A stretch of 61,496 nt of DNA, from the UHGV virus genome UHGV-0350099. One strand, given 5' to 3'. Shown in pieces: positions 3,001-35,483 of the stretch; position 1 is the stretch's first letter; each line of letters opens with the position of its first letter. This DNA is from a virus. Under the pieces are notes generated by a model. The model had not been told where the DNA came from. It worked only from the letters and a program-made list of their open reading frames with translations, and ran no database searches. The translations under genes were made by a program, and so were the position numbers.

Positions 3001-4026
3001 ACTCTGACTGGAAACCTGCGTTTGTCTGCTGACAATGCCTCCATTGTCTGCGGTAACAATGGGGATATTGGCTTCATCAAAAAACAGGGCTACCCAGGCG
3101 CAATCGTGACTGGTTCGGCAACTAAGTTCATGATTATGCGTAGTAATGCGGCCACGAATATTTCGGCTGCAAATACGCTCACGGAAGTAATGTCCATCCA
3201 GCCAACCTCAAATCGTGCCGACTTCGTAGGTGAGGTGGTTTCGCATTCGGCAAATGCGTTACGCGCGGTTTACGGGAACTACGGCTTCTTTATTCGCAAT
3301 GATGGCGGCACAACTTACTTCCTGCTGACTGCTTCTGGCGATAAATATGGCAGCTGGAACACGTTACGCCCATTGTCCATAAACAACGCAAGCGGTGCAG
3401 TTTCAATGGGGAATGGCTTGAGCGTTGGGGGAGGGGTGAATGTCACGAGCGGAAATATCCGAATCCCGACGTCGAGCACATCGTGGATCGACATGAGGAA
3501 CAATGCCGCTCTGTCTAACAGTTCTGCGGTTGCCACTTCCTCTGCATCGGCCATTATTCGTCAGGAGCACGCCGATCGTCATTATTTTGTTGGTGGTTTA
3601 GGTAACTCTCAGTTCGGATTCTACATGATTAACAAGTCACGAACTGCGAACGGCACGGATGCGAACGCATACCTCCAGAATGATGGCACTTGGGTTTGTG
3701 GCGGTAATGGCAACTTTAATGACGTTTATATCCGCTCTGACCGTCGTAGCAAACGCAATATTCGCAAGATTGAACGGGCGCTCGACAAGCTGGATCGGAT
3801 CGAAGGTGTTCTCTACGAGATTCAGGTCTGTGACCGGTATGAGCAGTCTGGCGGCCTCATCGCTCAGGACGTCCAGAATGTTCAGCCTGAACTGGTAACG
3901 GTTGACCATAACGATCAGTCAGGAGAGCCTCGTCTGCGTCTTAACTACAACGGCGTTATCGGCATGTTGGTCGAGGCTGTCAAAGAGCTGCGCGAGGAAG
4001 TGCGCGAACTGAAGGCAAAAATGTAA
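1..4026 (+). CDS. Tail fibre protein, 5'-partial (frame 1 is open from base 1); C-terminal S74-type intramolecular chaperone domain
   Basis: No stop in frame 1 from 1 to 4026; Ala/Ser-rich N-region with KTSETNAKASE-like motifs; repeated GNAATATKLQTAR blocks; C-terminal SDRRSKRNIRKIE...LVEAVKELREEV resembles autoproteolytic chaperone domain. Confidence 0.8.
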   Translation, partial: ASSASAASTSAGQASASATAAGKSAESAASSASTATTKAGEATEQASAAARSASAAKTSETNAKASETRAESSKTAAASSASSAASSASSASASKDEATRQASAAKSSATTASTKATEAAGSATAAAQSKSTAESAATRAETAAKRAEDIASAVALEDASTTKKGIVQLSSATNSTSETLAATPKAVKAANDNANGRVPSNRKVNGKALTADITLTPKDIGTLNSVTISFSGGAGWFKLATVTMPQASSIVYIALIGGAGYNVGSPHQAGISELVLRAGNGNPKGITGALWKRTAVGLTNFAWINTSGDTYDIYVEIGNYATSVNIHWDCTANATVSIYTSPTYSASKPSSVTDGVVYTMYSTHQKPTPLDIGALPTTGGTVSGPLSVTGGLTGSLNGNASTATKLQTARSIGGVVFDGSANINLPGVNTTGNQNTTGNAATATKLQTARTINGVKFDGSADITLTPANLDVYSKSEIDNKKGMRKYTFSAPANAVSGKWYPIVFRRSGGSTDELASRVVITTYSSAGGYAMNNCEFNGFVMPGGWSDRGSYAAGFFSIYSTAERAIHSIISSVKDDDLCSVFYVEARAFPIKIFAEEGLNVIVPTADYAVGQTTYKWGATDPLSESTNAQIILDFKNGRGYYCSHPFISSLSGNAATATKLQTARTIGGVAFDGSANINLPGVNTAGNQNTTGNAATATKLQTARNINGVKFDGSGDININTLVSRGQVTALSGSTQGTAGIQMYEAYSNNYPTSFGNVLHMKGASAAGEGELLIGWSGTSGAHAPVYVRSRRDTSTANWSGWAQIYTTAHKPTAKDVGAAQAFSASYSTGAGNWTTAEFIAWLKERGAFEVPYWMMKGSWSYADNKIITDTGVGNICLAGAVIEVLGHEGAMTIRVTTPTTTTGGGIASAQFTYINHGSAYAPAWRRDYNTALKPTAADVGALPISGGTMNGVLTLQNVSQPLKTPGGGILANDGNLYINKSGFAGWIDALFLKNSGGTLTGNLRLSADNASIVCGNNGDIGFIKKQGYPGAIVTGSATKFMIMRSNAATNISAANTLTEVMSIQPTSNRADFVGEVVSHSANALRAVYGNYGFFIRNDGGTTYFLLTASGDKYGSWNTLRPLSINNASGAVSMGNGLSVGGGVNVTSGNIRIPTSSTSWIDMRNNAALSNSSAVATSSASAIIRQEHADRHYFVGGLGNSQFGFYMINKSRTANGTDANAYLQNDGTWVCGGNGNFNDVYIRSDRRSKRNIRKIERALDKLDRIEGVLYEIQVCDRYEQSGGLIAQDVQNVQPELVTVDHNDQSGEPRLRLNYNGVIGMLVEAVKELREEVRELKAKM

Positions 4027-4092
4027 TCAAGGTGAATGGTGAGGGGCCACCCTCACCAATTCAGGATATTCACATCAAAAAGGAGATTAGAT

Positions 4093-4875
4093 GTGCCAAT
4101 TGTCGGTGTTCCCGGTTGGATTGGGTCTTCGGCTGTCAGTGTGACAGGCCAGAGATGGATGAGTGCGGCTCGAACGGCGGTGCAACTGCCAGCGGCTGGT
4201 TCAATGTCTCAAATGGCCGGGCGATCTAAAGAAGTTCAGTACAGCATCGGTGCGAATCATAACTACAACAAAGACACACTGATCAACTATTTAAAATCCC
4301 AGGGGGCGACGCCAGTCGTTGTTACCATTACAGGGGATCTGGTGTCGTCCAGTAGCGGCGTGCCATGTTTAGATTTCCCGAGTTCACTTACCAACTCTTA
4401 TATCAGCCTTGTAATCAACGCAGGTGTGACTGTCTATGGACGCGGTGGCAATGGTGGTAGTAACGCTGCCGGTGCTGCTGGTGGTAACGCAATTAATAAT
4501 GGCATCGGTACACGCTTGCGTATTACGAATAATGGTGCAATCGCTGGAGGTGGTGGCGGCGGTGGCGGCGGTAACAGGGGTCGACTAGTATTTGGTGGTG
4601 GCGGTGGGTGCCCATTCGGTGCTGGTGGGTCTTCCTCTCATATGAGTTCCGGTGCAACTGCTGGTACTATTTCCACTCCTGGTAAGGGATCTGTTGGTGA
4701 GGGGTCTCTTAGTGCATATACAGGCGGTTCGGGTGGTAATGTCGGTGCTGCTGGAGGAAGATGTAATACTCAAGGTAACGGTACAGAATATAACGGCGGA
4801 GCAGCTGGTAAAGCTGTTACTGGTAATGCTCCAACTTGGACTAAAGTTGGAGCAATTTACGGCGCTCATGTGTAA
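4093..4875 (+). CDS. Glycine-rich protein, possible tail fibre tip/receptor-binding or fibre-associated protein
   Basis: ORF frame 1; start moved to GTG 4093 after RBS AAGGAG (4079-4085) because ATG 4036 lies inside a hairpin; long poly-Gly tracts; position directly after tail fibre. Confidence 0.4.
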   Translation: MPIVGVPGWIGSSAVSVTGQRWMSAARTAVQLPAAGSMSQMAGRSKEVQYSIGANHNYNKDTLINYLKSQGATPVVVTITGDLVSSSSGVPCLDFPSSLTNSYISLVINAGVTVYGRGGNGGSNAAGAAGGNAINNGIGTRLRITNNGAIAGGGGGGGGGNRGRLVFGGGGGCPFGAGGSSSHMSSGATAGTISTPGKGSVGEGSLSAYTGGSGGNVGAAGGRCNTQGNGTEYNGGAAGKAVTGNAPTWTKVGAIYGAHV

Positions 4876-4949
4876 GTACTTACCTACCAAGTGTGGGCGT
4901 TTTATGATATAAATCCGCCATCCCGATTTGACTTTTCACGGAGGAAAAC

Positions 4950-5273
4950 ATGTCGAACGAGATGGCGGGCGTTACAACAGAGCAAGTTGAGCGTATTGCC
5001 GCGATCGTTGCTCGGGAGGTTGTTGGCAAATTAGGTAAAGAGCTACGTGAAGAAATTGGCCAGGAGGTCAATGATCAGCTGAAAACCTACTTTGGTGATA
5101 TGACCCCGGCGCAACATAGTATTCAACACTCCAATCTGGACAAACTCCTTAACCGGTTAGATTCCATCTCAAGTGGGTTCTTTGGCGGCATTGTTTCTAA
5201 AATAACGTCGTTCATTATTACCGCACTGCTTTTGGGGTTAGCCGCGTATGGCGTAAAAAGTGGACTGCAATAA
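4950..5273 (+). CDS. Small protein with C-terminal transmembrane helix; possible holin
   Basis: 107 aa, single hydrophobic C-terminal segment ITSFIITALLLGLAAYGV; sits immediately upstream of putative endolysin and spanins. Confidence 0.3.
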   Translation: MSNEMAGVTTEQVERIAAIVAREVVGKLGKELREEIGQEVNDQLKTYFGDMTPAQHSIQHSNLDKLLNRLDSISSGFFGGIVSKITSFIITALLLGLAAYGVKSGLQ

Positions 5274-30292: not shown

Positions 30293-30724
30293 GTGAACAC
30301 TGATATTTTTTCTAAAATCATGGCCGATCTGGAGTTCGACCGCGACAACCTTGAGGAAGTATGGCGTAAACAGCCACGGCTTTTAATGGAGTATGGGTCA
30401 AAACTAGCGCAGGCAGATCGAGATGTCGCAGAGGCAAAACTTAACCTTGAAGCTGTTGAAGCAAAGCTATACGACACAGAGCGTAAGAACTTGAGTATGA
30501 ACGGCATTAAGTTTAACGAGTCTGTACTGGACGCTAAGGTTAAAACAAACCCACAGTATCTGTCTAAACGGCAGAAGTTGGATGAAGCACGGCACATCGC
30601 AGACATATACAAACATGCTGTCGCCGCCTTTTCGCATCGCCGAGACATGATCGTTCAGGCGTCAAAGATGGCCATCGTTGAATTAGAGCGATTAGGCTCT
30701 GAACGCTTTATTACTCCCCGTTGA
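30293..30724 (+). CDS. Hypothetical protein
   Basis: 143-aa ORF with GTG start; coiled-coil-like composition. Confidence 0.45.
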   Translation: MNTDIFSKIMADLEFDRDNLEEVWRKQPRLLMEYGSKLAQADRDVAEAKLNLEAVEAKLYDTERKNLSMNGIKFNESVLDAKVKTNPQYLSKRQKLDEARHIADIYKHAVAAFSHRRDMIVQASKMAIVELERLGSERFITPR

Positions 30725-33143: not shown

Positions 33144-35483
33144 ATGGCAAAAGGAAAATCCGCACTGGCACTTGCTCTGAAAAAGAAAATCGGTAGCAAC
33201 GACGAAATTCAGAAAGTAACTCATTGGATTGATACAGGCTTTCCACCGTTAAACAAAGCTATTTCTGGTCGTTACGATGGCGGCTTCCCATGTGGTCGTA
33301 TCGTCGAAGTATTCGGTCCACCAAGCGCGGGGAAATGTGTTACCGCAGACACCATGCTGCTGACGGAGCGTGGAATGGTAACAGTGAAAGAGTTGTTTGA
33401 GATTGAAGGGTACAAAGCGACATGCACTACTCGCGATGTAGAGCATAACGTTGGACTCATCAATGAAAATGGCGTGATAGAGAAGACCTCACACCTGACA
33501 TGGAACAACCGTCGCAAATTCAAGCGTATTAAGCTGGCATCAGGCGGTTATATCGAGGCTACGTTCCGTCACCCAATCCGTGTGGTTGACGACTTAGGTA
33601 ATGTCGTCTGGCGACATGCTGAAAAAATCAGTGTAGGCGACACGATTCCTTCAATGGTTGGCACACATCAATTCGGCGATCAGCACCTGGATGCCAATAT
33701 CGCAAAACTGATGGGCTATTTAATTGCTGACGGATACGTGGCCTCTGAAAATTCAGTGAATTTTTCTAACACAGATCCTTTCATCAAGGATGAGTACTAC
33801 CGCCTCATTTCGCTGGTATCAGACAAGATGCCAGTTGCGAGAAAACATAACGGCTCGGAAGACCATGTGCTGTTTAGCAAAGAGGTGCGTTCGCTGCTTT
33901 TTAAAGAATATGGTCTGGAGTATGAGAAAGCTGCTGGCAAGCAGGTTCCGTTGAGTGTGCGTCGCGCCAATAGCGAGGCTCAAATTGCATTCCTTCGCGG
34001 CTACTTTGAGCTGGAATGCCACGTCAATGATGGTCGCTGCATTGAGGTTGTGAGCGCGAGTGGGCTGCTGCTACAGCAAATTCGCCTCATGCTCCTGAAT
34101 CTGGGGATTACGTCAACTATCTCTGAAAAACACGTCGCGGGTTATGAAAATACATATTACCGGCTGTCATTCAGTGGCTCTAATTACGACCTTTTTCTGT
34201 CAACGATTGGTTTCGAATCTCCGGCACGTTTATCAGTGGCAACCAAACGGGACATTGGTTTTGACCGCACTTACTCAGGCTATGTTCCGCACATCAGCGG
34301 CTTAGTGAAATCACTCTACGAGTCGCTCACCAAGACCACCCGTGAAGACTACGCTCTGGTAGACCACGTTATTGGCCGCGGCGATCGTGTCGGAATAGAC
34401 AAACTGCGAGAAATCTATGTCTCCTTCATTGGCAGAAAGAATCGTTTTAACGAGCATCTGTTTGCACAACTGGCAGCGGTAATTGGCTCTAACTTGTTCT
34501 ACGACGAAGTCGTGGCTATTGAGGAAGGTGAAGCACCAACGTTCGACGTAGCGATGCCGGAAACACACTCTTTCTGGTCTAACGGGATTATCAGCCACAA
34601 CACATTCCTTGCAACAGCAGCGATGATCTCCGCTCAAAAACAAGATGGTCTGGCGGTATTCCTCGATCATGAAAACAGTTTTGACGTTGGCCTGGCTGTA
34701 GCCAATGGCCTGAACGCAGATGAGGATGACGGTCAGTGGGTATACAAGCAGCCAGATACCTTCGAAGACTCTGTAGAGTTGATCGGCACAATACTTAAAT
34801 TGGTTCGTGATGAAGAGCTTATCCCCGAATCAGCACCTATCTGTATCGTGGCTGACTCTCTTGCGTCTATGGTTCCGAACTCCAAAGCCGAGAAGTTCGA
34901 AAAGATGGCTGAAGGCACAGCCAAAGACAAAGATCAGCTAAACATGAACGACAATACGGCACTGGCTCGTGCGACGAGTGCGAACTTCCCTACTCTGGCT
35001 TTGTGGGCACGCAAATACAACGCCTGCATCATCTTCTTGAATCAGGTTCGCACAAAAATCGGTGTAATGTTTGGCGACCCTACTACGTCGCCAGGTGGAG
35101 ATTCACCGAAGTTTTACGCTTCTGTGCGTATCCGTCTTGGTGCATCGGTGATGAAGGATGGTAAAGAGAAGATCGGCCAGGACGTAGGCGCAGAATGCAT
35201 CAAAAACAAAGTTGCACCACCGTATGGCAAATGCACCTGGAAATTCTACTTCGATCCTACTCGTGGCCTCGACGTTATCGAATCGCTCGTCGAGTACATG
35301 CTGGAAGAAGGATACCTGCCAAAGAACGCCAGCGGGCGAGTTGAAATTGGTGACAAGAAATACACCAAATCGCAGATCGTCGAGATGTATCGGGAGAAGC
35401 CACTGGCTGAAATCATTGCGGCTTTGCAGGCAATCGACGACCGAAGAGCAAAAGACAACCCCACCGAGTCAGTAGAAGAGTAA
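33144..35483 (+). CDS. recA: RecA-like recombinase interrupted by an intein
   Basis: Exteins: GRIVEVFGPPSAGK|...|TFLATAAM, AVFLDHENSFD, CIVADSLASMVP, IFLNQVRTKIGVMFGDPTTSPGGDSPKFYASVRIRLG match RecA core motifs. Confidence 0.85.
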   Translation: MAKGKSALALALKKKIGSNDEIQKVTHWIDTGFPPLNKAISGRYDGGFPCGRIVEVFGPPSAGKCVTADTMLLTERGMVTVKELFEIEGYKATCTTRDVEHNVGLINENGVIEKTSHLTWNNRRKFKRIKLASGGYIEATFRHPIRVVDDLGNVVWRHAEKISVGDTIPSMVGTHQFGDQHLDANIAKLMGYLIADGYVASENSVNFSNTDPFIKDEYYRLISLVSDKMPVARKHNGSEDHVLFSKEVRSLLFKEYGLEYEKAAGKQVPLSVRRANSEAQIAFLRGYFELECHVNDGRCIEVVSASGLLLQQIRLMLLNLGITSTISEKHVAGYENTYYRLSFSGSNYDLFLSTIGFESPARLSVATKRDIGFDRTYSGYVPHISGLVKSLYESLTKTTREDYALVDHVIGRGDRVGIDKLREIYVSFIGRKNRFNEHLFAQLAAVIGSNLFYDEVVAIEEGEAPTFDVAMPETHSFWSNGIISHNTFLATAAMISAQKQDGLAVFLDHENSFDVGLAVANGLNADEDDGQWVYKQPDTFEDSVELIGTILKLVRDEELIPESAPICIVADSLASMVPNSKAEKFEKMAEGTAKDKDQLNMNDNTALARATSANFPTLALWARKYNACIIFLNQVRTKIGVMFGDPTTSPGGDSPKFYASVRIRLGASVMKDGKEKIGQDVGAECIKNKVAPPYGKCTWKFYFDPTRGLDVIESLVEYMLEEGYLPKNASGRVEIGDKKYTKSQIVEMYREKPLAEIIAALQAIDDRRAKDNPTESVEE
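33336..34601 (+). mobile_element. Intein (422 aa) with LAGLIDADG homing endonuclease, inserted in the RecA P-loop
   Basis: Begins with Cys right after GPPSAGK, ends HN followed by Thr; LAGLIDADG-like LMGYLIADGYV and FLRGYFELECHV. Confidence 0.8.

Follow-up and report, generated by a model that had tools for sequence, protein, structure and literature searches.

An intein within the Walker A motif of E. coli RecA was listed in 2015 by Topilina, Novikova, Stanger, Banavali, and Belfort (Nucleic Acids Res 43:6631; PMC4513877). Their Table 1 places it at RecA site c2, residues 65 to 486, and the taxa given for c2 inteins are E. coli, Enterobacter, and Salmonella, including strain E. coli MS 145-7 (PMC4513877). 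Independent invasion of the site was inferred for this intein and the P. horikoshii RadA intein (PMC4513877). For the c2 intein, we found no mention of a prophage, a splicing test, or a homing test in that paper (PMC4513877). The element analyzed here is the same one. Both span residues 65 to 486 at the Lys/Thr site of Walker A, and E. coli MS 145-7 is among the matches with 99.6% DNA identity to our intein. Therefore, the intein is not new; it is already known (2015) and common in public genomes. Our literature search for a phage-plasmid, SSU5, or pHCM2 setting of this intein, or for a homing signature, found no report.

A class-1 intein splits the Walker A motif

The window is a 61,496-nucleotide stretch of viral DNA (UHGV virus genome UHGV-0350099). 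The precursor open reading frame lies on the plus strand at positions 33144 to 35483, as do all features described below, and encodes 779 amino acids plus a stop codon; the 779-position profile phrog_9666 is the same protein. The N-extein (33144 to 33335) has 64 residues and ends in GPPSAGK (amino acids 58 to 64), which are Walker A residues 1 to 7 and align to GPESSGK of E. coli RecA. The insert that follows (33336 to 34601) is exactly 1266 nucleotides, or 422 amino acids, and runs from Cys65 (Cys1 of the intein), encoded from nucleotide 33336, to His485-Asn486 (His421-Asn422), which ends at nucleotide 34601. Thr487, encoded from nucleotide 34602, is the predicted +1 nucleophile and the first residue of the C-extein defined by alignment (34602 to 35483; 293 amino acids and the stop codon). 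When the flanks are joined, they form GPPSAGKT, and the insertion point, GPPSAGK/T, aligns to K72/T73 of E. coli RecA. The first-pass annotation had described a Walker A motif split by a 422-residue insert with Cys first, HN last, and a Thr restoring GPPSAGKT, and these coordinates are exact.

Splicing blocks are found at both ends of the insert. Block A (CVTADTMLLTERG; 33336 to 33374) contains the Cys1 nucleophile, is invariant in 27 unique alleles, and lies in the region covered by TIGR01445 (intein residues 1 to 83). Block B (GGYIEATFRHPIRV; 33543 to 33584) has Thr76-x-x-His79, and block F (APTFDVAMPETHSFWSNG; 34533 to 34586) has Asp404 and His411, each identified by motif and allele alignment. 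Block G (IISHN; 34587 to 34601) supplies the penultimate His421 and terminal Asn422. With Thr+1 and the precise empty homologues described below, these are the features of a class-1 intein. Between them is a putative nested LAGLIDADG homing endonuclease. Motif and allele alignments located LAGLIDADG motif 1 (block C; IAKLMGYLIADGYV; 33699 to 33740) at intein residues 122 to 135, with the core LMGYLIADG and acidic Asp132. They also located motif 2 (block E; QIAFLRGYFELECHV; 33981 to 34025), which Pfam detects as well, at residues 216 to 230, with the core LRGYFELEC and acidic Glu227. The two LAGLIDADG-like blocks proposed earlier are therefore in place. Motif 2 ends in Cys (ELEC) instead of the canonical Gly, and this Cys is conserved in the family. 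Block D (GKQVPLSVRRA; 33936 to 33968) carries Lys202, conserved in the family alignment, and block H (LLLQQIRLMLLNLGITSTI; 34065 to 34121), with invariant L253, L254, and G257, is the best-conserved stretch of the family.

Domain models agreed with this anatomy. On the intein, Pfam LAGLIDADG_3 (PF14528) scored E=5e-18, far above chance, and Intein_splicing (PF14890) scored E=4e-12 (46.6 bits; cut-off, 35.8). The N-terminal part reached 35.3 bits with TIGR01445 (cut-off, 24.5), and the C-terminal part reached 16.9 bits with TIGR01443 (cut-off, 15.6). Thus, the Hint and LAGLIDADG searches proposed with the first-pass annotation gave matches above the Pfam and TIGR cut-offs. C1, T76, H79, D132, E227, D404, H411, H421, and N422 are invariant in 27/27 unique occupied alleles; all 27 also keep K202, and none contains a stop codon.

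An AlphaFold model of the intein, built on an alignment of 9 sequences, had a pLDDT of 79 and a pTM of 0.84. Its N- and C-terminal beta-rich parts match the mini-inteins GyrA (1am2) and RadA (4e2t) and hedgehog Hint (1at0), consistent with a Hint fold. The best whole-length Foldseek matches were full-length endonuclease-bearing inteins (7qss, 1dq3, 2cw7, and PI-SceI), and these matches covered their endonuclease domains; the match to I-DmoI was weaker. The sequence match to 7qsu and 2cw7 spans intein residues 117 to 283. The acidic residue that closes each of the two motifs and the predicted fold point to a LAGLIDADG endonuclease.

The intein's host is the RecA-like protein of an SSU5-like phage-plasmid

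The joined exteins matched Pfam RecA (PF00154) with E=2e-42 and E. coli RecA structures with E values of about 1e-31, and the spliced extein compared more closely with RecA than with UvsX or RadA. The RecA-like host proposed earlier is supported by the Pfam match. However, the protein is below threshold for TIGR02012, the bacterial RecA equivalog (153.7 bits; cut-off, 325.3), and a search of the host recombinase for the RecA C-terminal domain (PF21096) found no match. We ruled out a chromosomal RecA orthologue as the host on these two grounds. The gene has a gp32-like SSB and a 5'-3' exonuclease as neighbors on a phage-plasmid. The interrupted gene belongs to an SSU5-like phage-plasmid and encodes its RecA-like recombinase; it is not the chromosomal recA gene. 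Phage-plasmids of the SSU5 type occur widely in Escherichia, Klebsiella, and Enterobacter.

The recombinase had also been called essential. This is unsupported because copies disrupted by IS1 or by an IS3-family element exist on complete plasmids. Database names for the gene vary. NCBI PGAP calls some copies "intein-containing recombinase RecA," and other records name the entire open reading frame just "LAGLIDADG family homing endonuclease" or "hypothetical protein."

Alleles with and without the intein occur side by side

Complete E. coli genomes contained 114 occupied and 129 empty alleles, so the intein is polymorphic. Removal of nucleotides 33336 to 34601 yields a 357-amino-acid protein with 0 differences from the intein-less allele of phage CMS-2020a. 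This was the extein comparison proposed with the first-pass annotation, and the predicted spliced protein equals a natural intein-less allele. The empty alleles of SSU5 and Klebsiella encode 358 amino acids. Across the recombinase family, most alleles lack the intein, and among E. coli phage-plasmids that are otherwise nearly identical, about half do. Relatives that carry it include PhiR41_1 and Cyrano, and there are at least 736 plasmid alleles of the gene in all. The intein is absent from 63/63 Yersinia records and 41/42 Salmonella records; target-site resistance or ecological isolation may account for such lineages. A native domain present in all homologues, or an insert without Hint blocks, would look different from what we found, which is blocks A to H plus natural empty alleles.

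The extein tree is mosaic, and in three of its clades alleles with the intein are scattered among alleles that lack it. With a slash at the insertion point, the empty-site junctions are GCAGGGAAA/ACGTTCCTT in CMS-2020a, GCTGGTAAA/ACCTTCCTG in Klebsiella, GCCGGTAAA/ACCTTTTTG in SSU5, and GCAGGAAAA/ACCTTCTTA in the uninvaded clade. The corresponding synthetic "occupied-flank" site, with the intein removed, is GCGGGGAAA/ACATTCCTT. No excised junction at 80/80 identity was found among the 129 empty alleles of complete E. coli genomes.

The intein has spread recently with very short flanks

Across three lineages, the intein is 96.8 to 99.8% identical in DNA sequence, whereas their exteins are 77 to 85% identical. 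Intein dS is 0.003 to 0.09 and extein dS is 1.2 to 2.2, so that the intein values are 14 to >300 times lower. By this synonymous measure, the intein is far younger than the host genes. It is also under purifying selection as judged by dN/dS, which is 0.16 to 0.25 for the intein and about 0.2 for the endonuclease part in pairs with enough substitutions.

The DNA next to the insertion point has a signature of its own. An upstream flank, GCGGGGAAA (33327 to 33335), and a downstream flank, ACATTCCT (34602 to 34609), form a half-site signature common to all occupied alleles. The full 17-mer, GCGGGGAAA/ACATTCCT, is present in 27/27 unique occupied alleles and 0/54 unique empty alleles. We considered position -7 (GCG versus GCA, GCT, or GCC) and the wobble base of the Thr codon (+3) as simpler markers. 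The second is nearly diagnostic. However, some empty alleles have G at -7 (L038 to L040), and 2/54 unique empty alleles have ACA, so no single flank base is fully diagnostic and the two classes are separated only by the full 17-mer.

The density of differences between occupied alleles and their nearest empty alleles is about 20-fold higher within 9 nucleotides of the junction than beyond 40 nucleotides (the alleles are related, so a Fisher P value for this contrast overstates independence and is no true probability). An empty-empty control had no comparable peak at the junction. The tracts that appear to have traveled with the intein are about 10 to 35 nucleotides long and are centered exactly on the insertion point. 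Short co-converted flanks carried by the intein argue for recent spread by homing, although the uniformity of the short flanks may owe something, beside co-conversion, to empty alleles that resist cleavage and so persist. The discordance in dS, the mixed clades, and the flank 17-mer all indicate horizontal spread. This population comparison bears out the suggestion that the intein is mobile.

DISCUSSION

The insert is very probably a class-1 intein with a nested LAGLIDADG endonuclease, lodged in the Walker A motif of an SSU5-like phage-plasmid recombinase and spreading by homing. As first proposed, it reads as a LAGLIDADG intein in Walker A of a RecA-like recombinase, and domain models, the predicted fold, and intein-less alleles agree on this. 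By analogy with characterized class-1 inteins, we infer that it splices and cleaves DNA. The 779-amino-acid precursor would be translated with its P-loop broken. An N-S acyl shift at Cys65 would be followed by transfer of the N-extein to the side chain of Thr487, and cyclization of Asn486, aided by His485, would free the intein. An O-N shift would then leave a 357-amino-acid recombinase with GPPSAGKT intact, plus the free 422-amino-acid intein. As a +1 nucleophile, Thr generally reacts more slowly than Cys or Ser. When a related phage-plasmid shares the cell, the free intein would cut its intein-less allele in a site-specific manner. With the occupied allele as the repair template, the intein and about 10 to 35 nucleotides of flank would then be copied into the empty gene.

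A role as a conditional-splicing switch has been proposed for the P. horikoshii RadA intein and for mycobacterial RecA and DnaB inteins. Splicing that responds to redox state, temperature, or DNA damage, for example, might similarly gate the phage-plasmid recombinase, and this would be compatible with homing. The P-loop insertion point of our intein coincides with that of the P. horikoshii RadA intein, in which the exteins control splicing. Our intein also has a Cys1 nucleophile with N-extein Cys50 close by, and its splicing part is under purifying selection. However, the intein is dispensable, because about half of near-identical E. coli phage-plasmids do without it. The extein protein is the same with or without the intein, so nothing suggests that intein and extein have adapted to each other. 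Furthermore, Topilina et al. hold that docking between intein and extein of the P. horikoshii RadA type is unfeasible for the E. coli precursor (PMC4513877). We consider a domesticated switch unlikely.

Alternatively, the intein might still splice but have a dead endonuclease, with its patchy distribution due to ordinary homologous recombination and occasional loss instead of homing. Phage-plasmids recombine readily, and the mosaic extein tree fits this, as does the Cys in place of the canonical Gly in motif 2. Decay also occurs in the family, in that distant relatives in bacterial RecA proteins (P0007, P0012, and P0013) have lost LAGLIDADG motif 1. Even so, the endonuclease part of this intein has a low dN/dS and no stop codons, and D132, E227, and K202 are kept in every unique occupied allele. 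The tracts centered on the insertion point are much shorter than general recombination predicts, and the gap between intein and extein dS recurs in three lineages. Such a relic is quite improbable. Finally, a native, non-excised recombinase domain or a pseudogene, as the database labels for the full open reading frame might suggest, can be rejected with near certainty, since most alleles of the family lack the insert, a natural intein-less allele encodes an identical extein protein, a catalytic motif that is otherwise invariant is interrupted, every splicing block is present, and none of the 27 unique occupied alleles has a broken open reading frame.

Homing therefore remains our preferred reading, and the intein itself adds no new discovery, as annotation pipelines already detect it. 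What may be useful is that the "E. coli RecA intein" can now be assigned to SSU5-like phage-plasmids, as part of their recombination module. Occupied and empty alleles that are nearly isogenic exist in nature, with the marks of recent endonuclease-type spread and very short co-conversion tracts. This is a natural setting in which intein homing and the splicing of a P-loop intein could be studied conveniently in a standard laboratory organism. The nearly 50:50 polymorphism may be an ongoing homing sweep in clinically common SSU5-like elements, and conditional splicing may also gate the recombinase, although we regard this combined reading as doubtful. If it is true, a native E. coli-hosted system would allow direct measures of homing, co-conversion, and any effect on phage-plasmid fitness. 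There is also a warning for annotation, because a "LAGLIDADG family homing endonuclease" on an SSU5-like plasmid conceals a recombinase gene.

Comparison with known inteins

Other RecA proteins, from phages and from bacteria, carry relatives of the intein (27 to 48% identity) at this insertion site; the protein homologue search returned 13 matches, mostly fragments, which made same-site relatives evident but did not suffice for a deep alignment. The P. horikoshii RadA intein (c1; PDB 4e2t) shares the Walker A Lys/Thr point, Thr+1, and a similar splicing domain (Foldseek E of about 3e-5). However, it is an archaeal, hyperthermophilic mini-intein without an endonuclease and has little sequence similarity to the phage-plasmid intein. 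The M. tuberculosis RecA intein (PI-MtuI) is also class 1, with a LAGLIDADG endonuclease and a RecA-family host. In contrast, it occupies point a (residues 252 to 691), outside the P-loop, in a chromosomal housekeeping RecA, and its splicing domain alone matches ours structurally, and weakly (E of about 3e-3). The model for the Mtu-type "intein-containing recombinase RecA" (NF007072) was rejected for our protein, with partial, weak matches of 24.8 and 99.9 against a cut-off of 1024 and a different site.

The archaeal inteins TliVMA (7qss), PI-PfuI (1dq3), and PI-PkoII (2cw7), all of solved structure, have the same two-part architecture (Foldseek E of 3.5e-19 to 4e-16; TM of about 0.6), but they are only 15 to 19% identical to the phage-plasmid intein and reside in a V-ATPase, a ribonucleotide reductase, and a DNA polymerase of other organisms. 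These inteins, PI-PfuI included, have an Asp/Glu pair in their two LAGLIDADG motifs, as does the phage-plasmid intein. Compared with the c2 entry of Topilina et al. (PMC4513877), our analysis adds the SSU5-like phage-plasmid host, the polymorphism, the age discordance, and the quantified co-conversion tracts.

An intein with a full set of conserved blocks splits a P-loop

The plus-strand ORF at 33144-35483 translates into a 779-amino-acid precursor in which GPPSAGK (amino acids 58 to 64) is followed by Cys65, the start of the intein, at nucleotide 33336. The intein ends with His485-Asn486 at nucleotide 34601, and the next residue is Thr487. The insert is exactly 422 amino acids long, and joining its flanks restores GPPSAGKT. 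The first-pass annotation, which had proposed a LAGLIDADG intein at this position, was right to the base. All of the canonical intein blocks were found (intein numbering): block A (Cys1), block B (Thr76-x-x-His79), block C, which is LAGLIDADG motif 1 (Asp132), block D (Lys202), block E, which is LAGLIDADG motif 2 (Glu227), block H, block F (Asp404 and His411), and block G (His421-Asn422, followed by Thr+1). Across the 27 unique alleles that contain the intein (occupied alleles), the catalytic residues are invariant and every frame is intact.

The Pfam RecA match was split in the precursor, and it reached E=2e-42 with the exteins, the flanking recombinase parts, joined. Pfam also matched the expected Hint and LAGLIDADG domains, as Intein_splicing (46.6 bits against a cut-off of 35.8) and LAGLIDADG_3 (E=5e-18). 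Both NCBIfam intein_Nterm and intein_Cterm were over their cut-offs, and there were partial NCBIfam matches to many archaeal and bacterial intein-containing proteins. By established intein chemistry, an N-S shift at Cys65, transesterification to Thr487, cyclization of Asn486, and an O-N shift would yield a 357-amino-acid recombinase and a free endonuclease. The endonuclease might then cut alleles without the intein (empty alleles) in co-resident phage-plasmids.

The intein is absent from close homologues and dispensable

The related gene of phage CMS-2020a is 1074 nucleotides long and has no intein. With 33336-34601 removed, the window gene matched it in length; 14 differences separate the two, all of them silent, and the encoded proteins are identical. 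SSU5 and a Klebsiella phage have intein-less genes encoding 358 amino acids. The insert is precisely absent from all three, and it is not a native domain of every family member.

Among plasmid records, 736 had the gene and about 240 to 248 of these had the intein. It was in 123 of 229 Escherichia records (54%), 71 of 269 from Klebsiella, 41 of 91 from Enterobacter, 1 of 42 from Salmonella, and none of 63 from Yersinia. Its scarcity in the last two could reflect either resistance of the target site or isolation of an ecological kind. Among records of complete E. coli genomes, 114 matched the intein-containing gene over at least 80% of its length, and an uninterrupted junction was present in 129. 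Because the intein is missing from about half of E. coli elements, with an identical extein protein, it is dispensable.

Recent spread and junction-centered tracts

Exteins of the E. coli-type, Klebsiella-type, and Enterobacter/SSU5-type genes are 77-85% identical in DNA, whereas their inteins are 96.8-99.8% identical. Synonymous divergence is 0.003-0.09 in the intein versus 1.2-2.2 in the exteins, and each lineage has an empty allele with exteins 97-99% identical. Three clades in a tree built from 81 unique alleles contained occupied and empty members intermixed. The intein has spread horizontally in recent times, and it is under purifying selection (dN/dS of 0.16-0.25; for the endonuclease part, about 0.2 from only those pairs with enough substitutions).

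The flanks GCGGGGAAA and ACATTCCT, together a 17-mer across the insertion point, surround the intein in 27/27 unique occupied alleles. The 17-mer was in none of the 54 unique empty alleles, and no empty allele of the complete E. coli genomes gave an 80/80 match to the junction left by precise excision. Between occupied alleles and their nearest empty alleles there were 0.19 differences per site within 9 nucleotides of the junction, dropping outward through 0.054 and 0.024 to about 0.01 at more than 40 nucleotides, a comparison of related alleles for which a formal P value is not meaningful. An empty-versus-empty control had no comparable peak. Repair initiated by an endonuclease, with short co-conversion tracts, would leave just such a junction-centered pattern. 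Part of it could come from empty sites that survived selectively because they resist cleavage, but that too would call for an active enzyme. The divergence gap, mixed clades, and junction-centered flanks all bear out the proposal that the intein is mobile.

The host is a phage-plasmid recombinase

In an alignment with the spliced exteins, GPESSGKT of E. coli RecA lies under GPPSAGKT, which places the insertion between the equivalents of K72 and T73. The host protein scored well under the RecA equivalog cut-off, and a domain-model search found no RecA C-terminal domain in it. This is the recombinase of a phage-plasmid, a member of the RecA family distinct from the cell's own RecA.

The first-pass annotation called this recombinase essential. 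Its family assignment stands, but essentiality is not supported because copies disrupted by insertion sequences exist on plasmids. In E. coli plasmid p2 (CP059946.1; locus L121), a 771-nucleotide IS1 with InsA/InsB domains (locus nucleotides 1124-1894) lies inside the intein at window position 33759-33766, approximately, with an 8-bp target duplication, AATTTTTC. The gene is otherwise 99.6% identical to the window gene, and this complete plasmid of 110 kb has a knocked-out recombinase. In a 62-kb Escherichia albertii plasmid (CP043243.1; locus L123), a 1162-nucleotide IS3-family element with an rve integrase domain (locus nucleotides 4077-5238) splits the C-extein of a copy that has the intein and shares about 95% identity with the window gene.

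Two other loci have partial genes. A conjugative IncF plasmid (NZ_CP075717.1, nucleotides 3001-4424), off any phage-plasmid backbone, carries a truncated remnant annotated as a hypothetical protein, with the last 584 nucleotides of the intein plus the C-extein (89.7% identity). In IMGVR_UViG_2724678972_000008 (about nucleotides 2450-2520), a break or rearrangement of the gene falls exactly at the P-loop codons; the C-extein, from AGK/TFLATAAM on, is preceded by an unrelated ORF in another frame ending in TFATGEAGCW. An assembly chimera could explain this, as could recombination of two genes with P-loops.

Genomic setting

The gene has counterparts of 98-99.7% identity in the Escherichia phages PhiR41_1 and Cyrano, as well as in many non-mobilizable E. 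coli plasmids of roughly 110 kb. These carriers are SSU5-like phage-plasmids. The gene was in 250 of 5,426 complete E. coli genomes, plasmid-borne in every case. Upstream are genes for a gp32-like SSB, a 5'-3' exonuclease, and a small conserved ORF; downstream are those for a small membrane protein and an SPFH protein. A 134-amino-acid ORF at 30320-30724 (plus strand) is named "UvsY recombination mediator" in Cyrano. It had no Pfam match and only unknown-function PHROG matches, so this label is unsupported by those libraries. The first 1000 nucleotides of the window (GC 0.55, AT skew 0.24) are clearly unlike the rest (GC about 0.46).

Relationship to known inteins

A survey of RadA/RecA inteins by Topilina et al. 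(2015; PMC4513877) distinguished five insertion points, of which c lies at the P-loop. It is called c1 in archaeal RadA and c2 in bacterial "RecA." In Table 1 of that paper, c2 (65-486) is recorded for eight strains of E. coli, two of Enterobacter, and one of Salmonella. One of these, MS 145-7, is among the 99.6% matches to the window gene. PGAP labels copies "intein-containing recombinase RecA," "hint domain-containing protein," or "LAGLIDADG family homing endonuclease." Therefore, the element was already known, and our analysis supports the intein interpretation of a published, widely annotated element. In the literature searched, we found no description of its phage-plasmid context or population-genetic homing signature, and these are the modest added value here.

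Distant relatives (27-48% identity across the set) occupy the same site in the phage RecA-like genes L036 and L037. Inteins with 27-31% identity also occupy the same GK/C...HN/T site in P0007, P0012, and P0013, which are true bacterial RecA proteins and have the RecA C-terminal domain. LAGLIDADG motif 1 has been lost from all three of these inteins, which leaves them with degenerate endonuclease domains. P0007 sits on a 550-kb contig. For the AlphaFold model of our intein (pLDDT 79, pTM 0.84), the best predicted fold matches were full-length, endonuclease-containing inteins (TliVMA 7qss, PI-PfuI 1dq3, PI-PkoII 2cw7, and PI-SceI), and mini-inteins, including that of P. horikoshii RadA, resembled its modeled splicing part.
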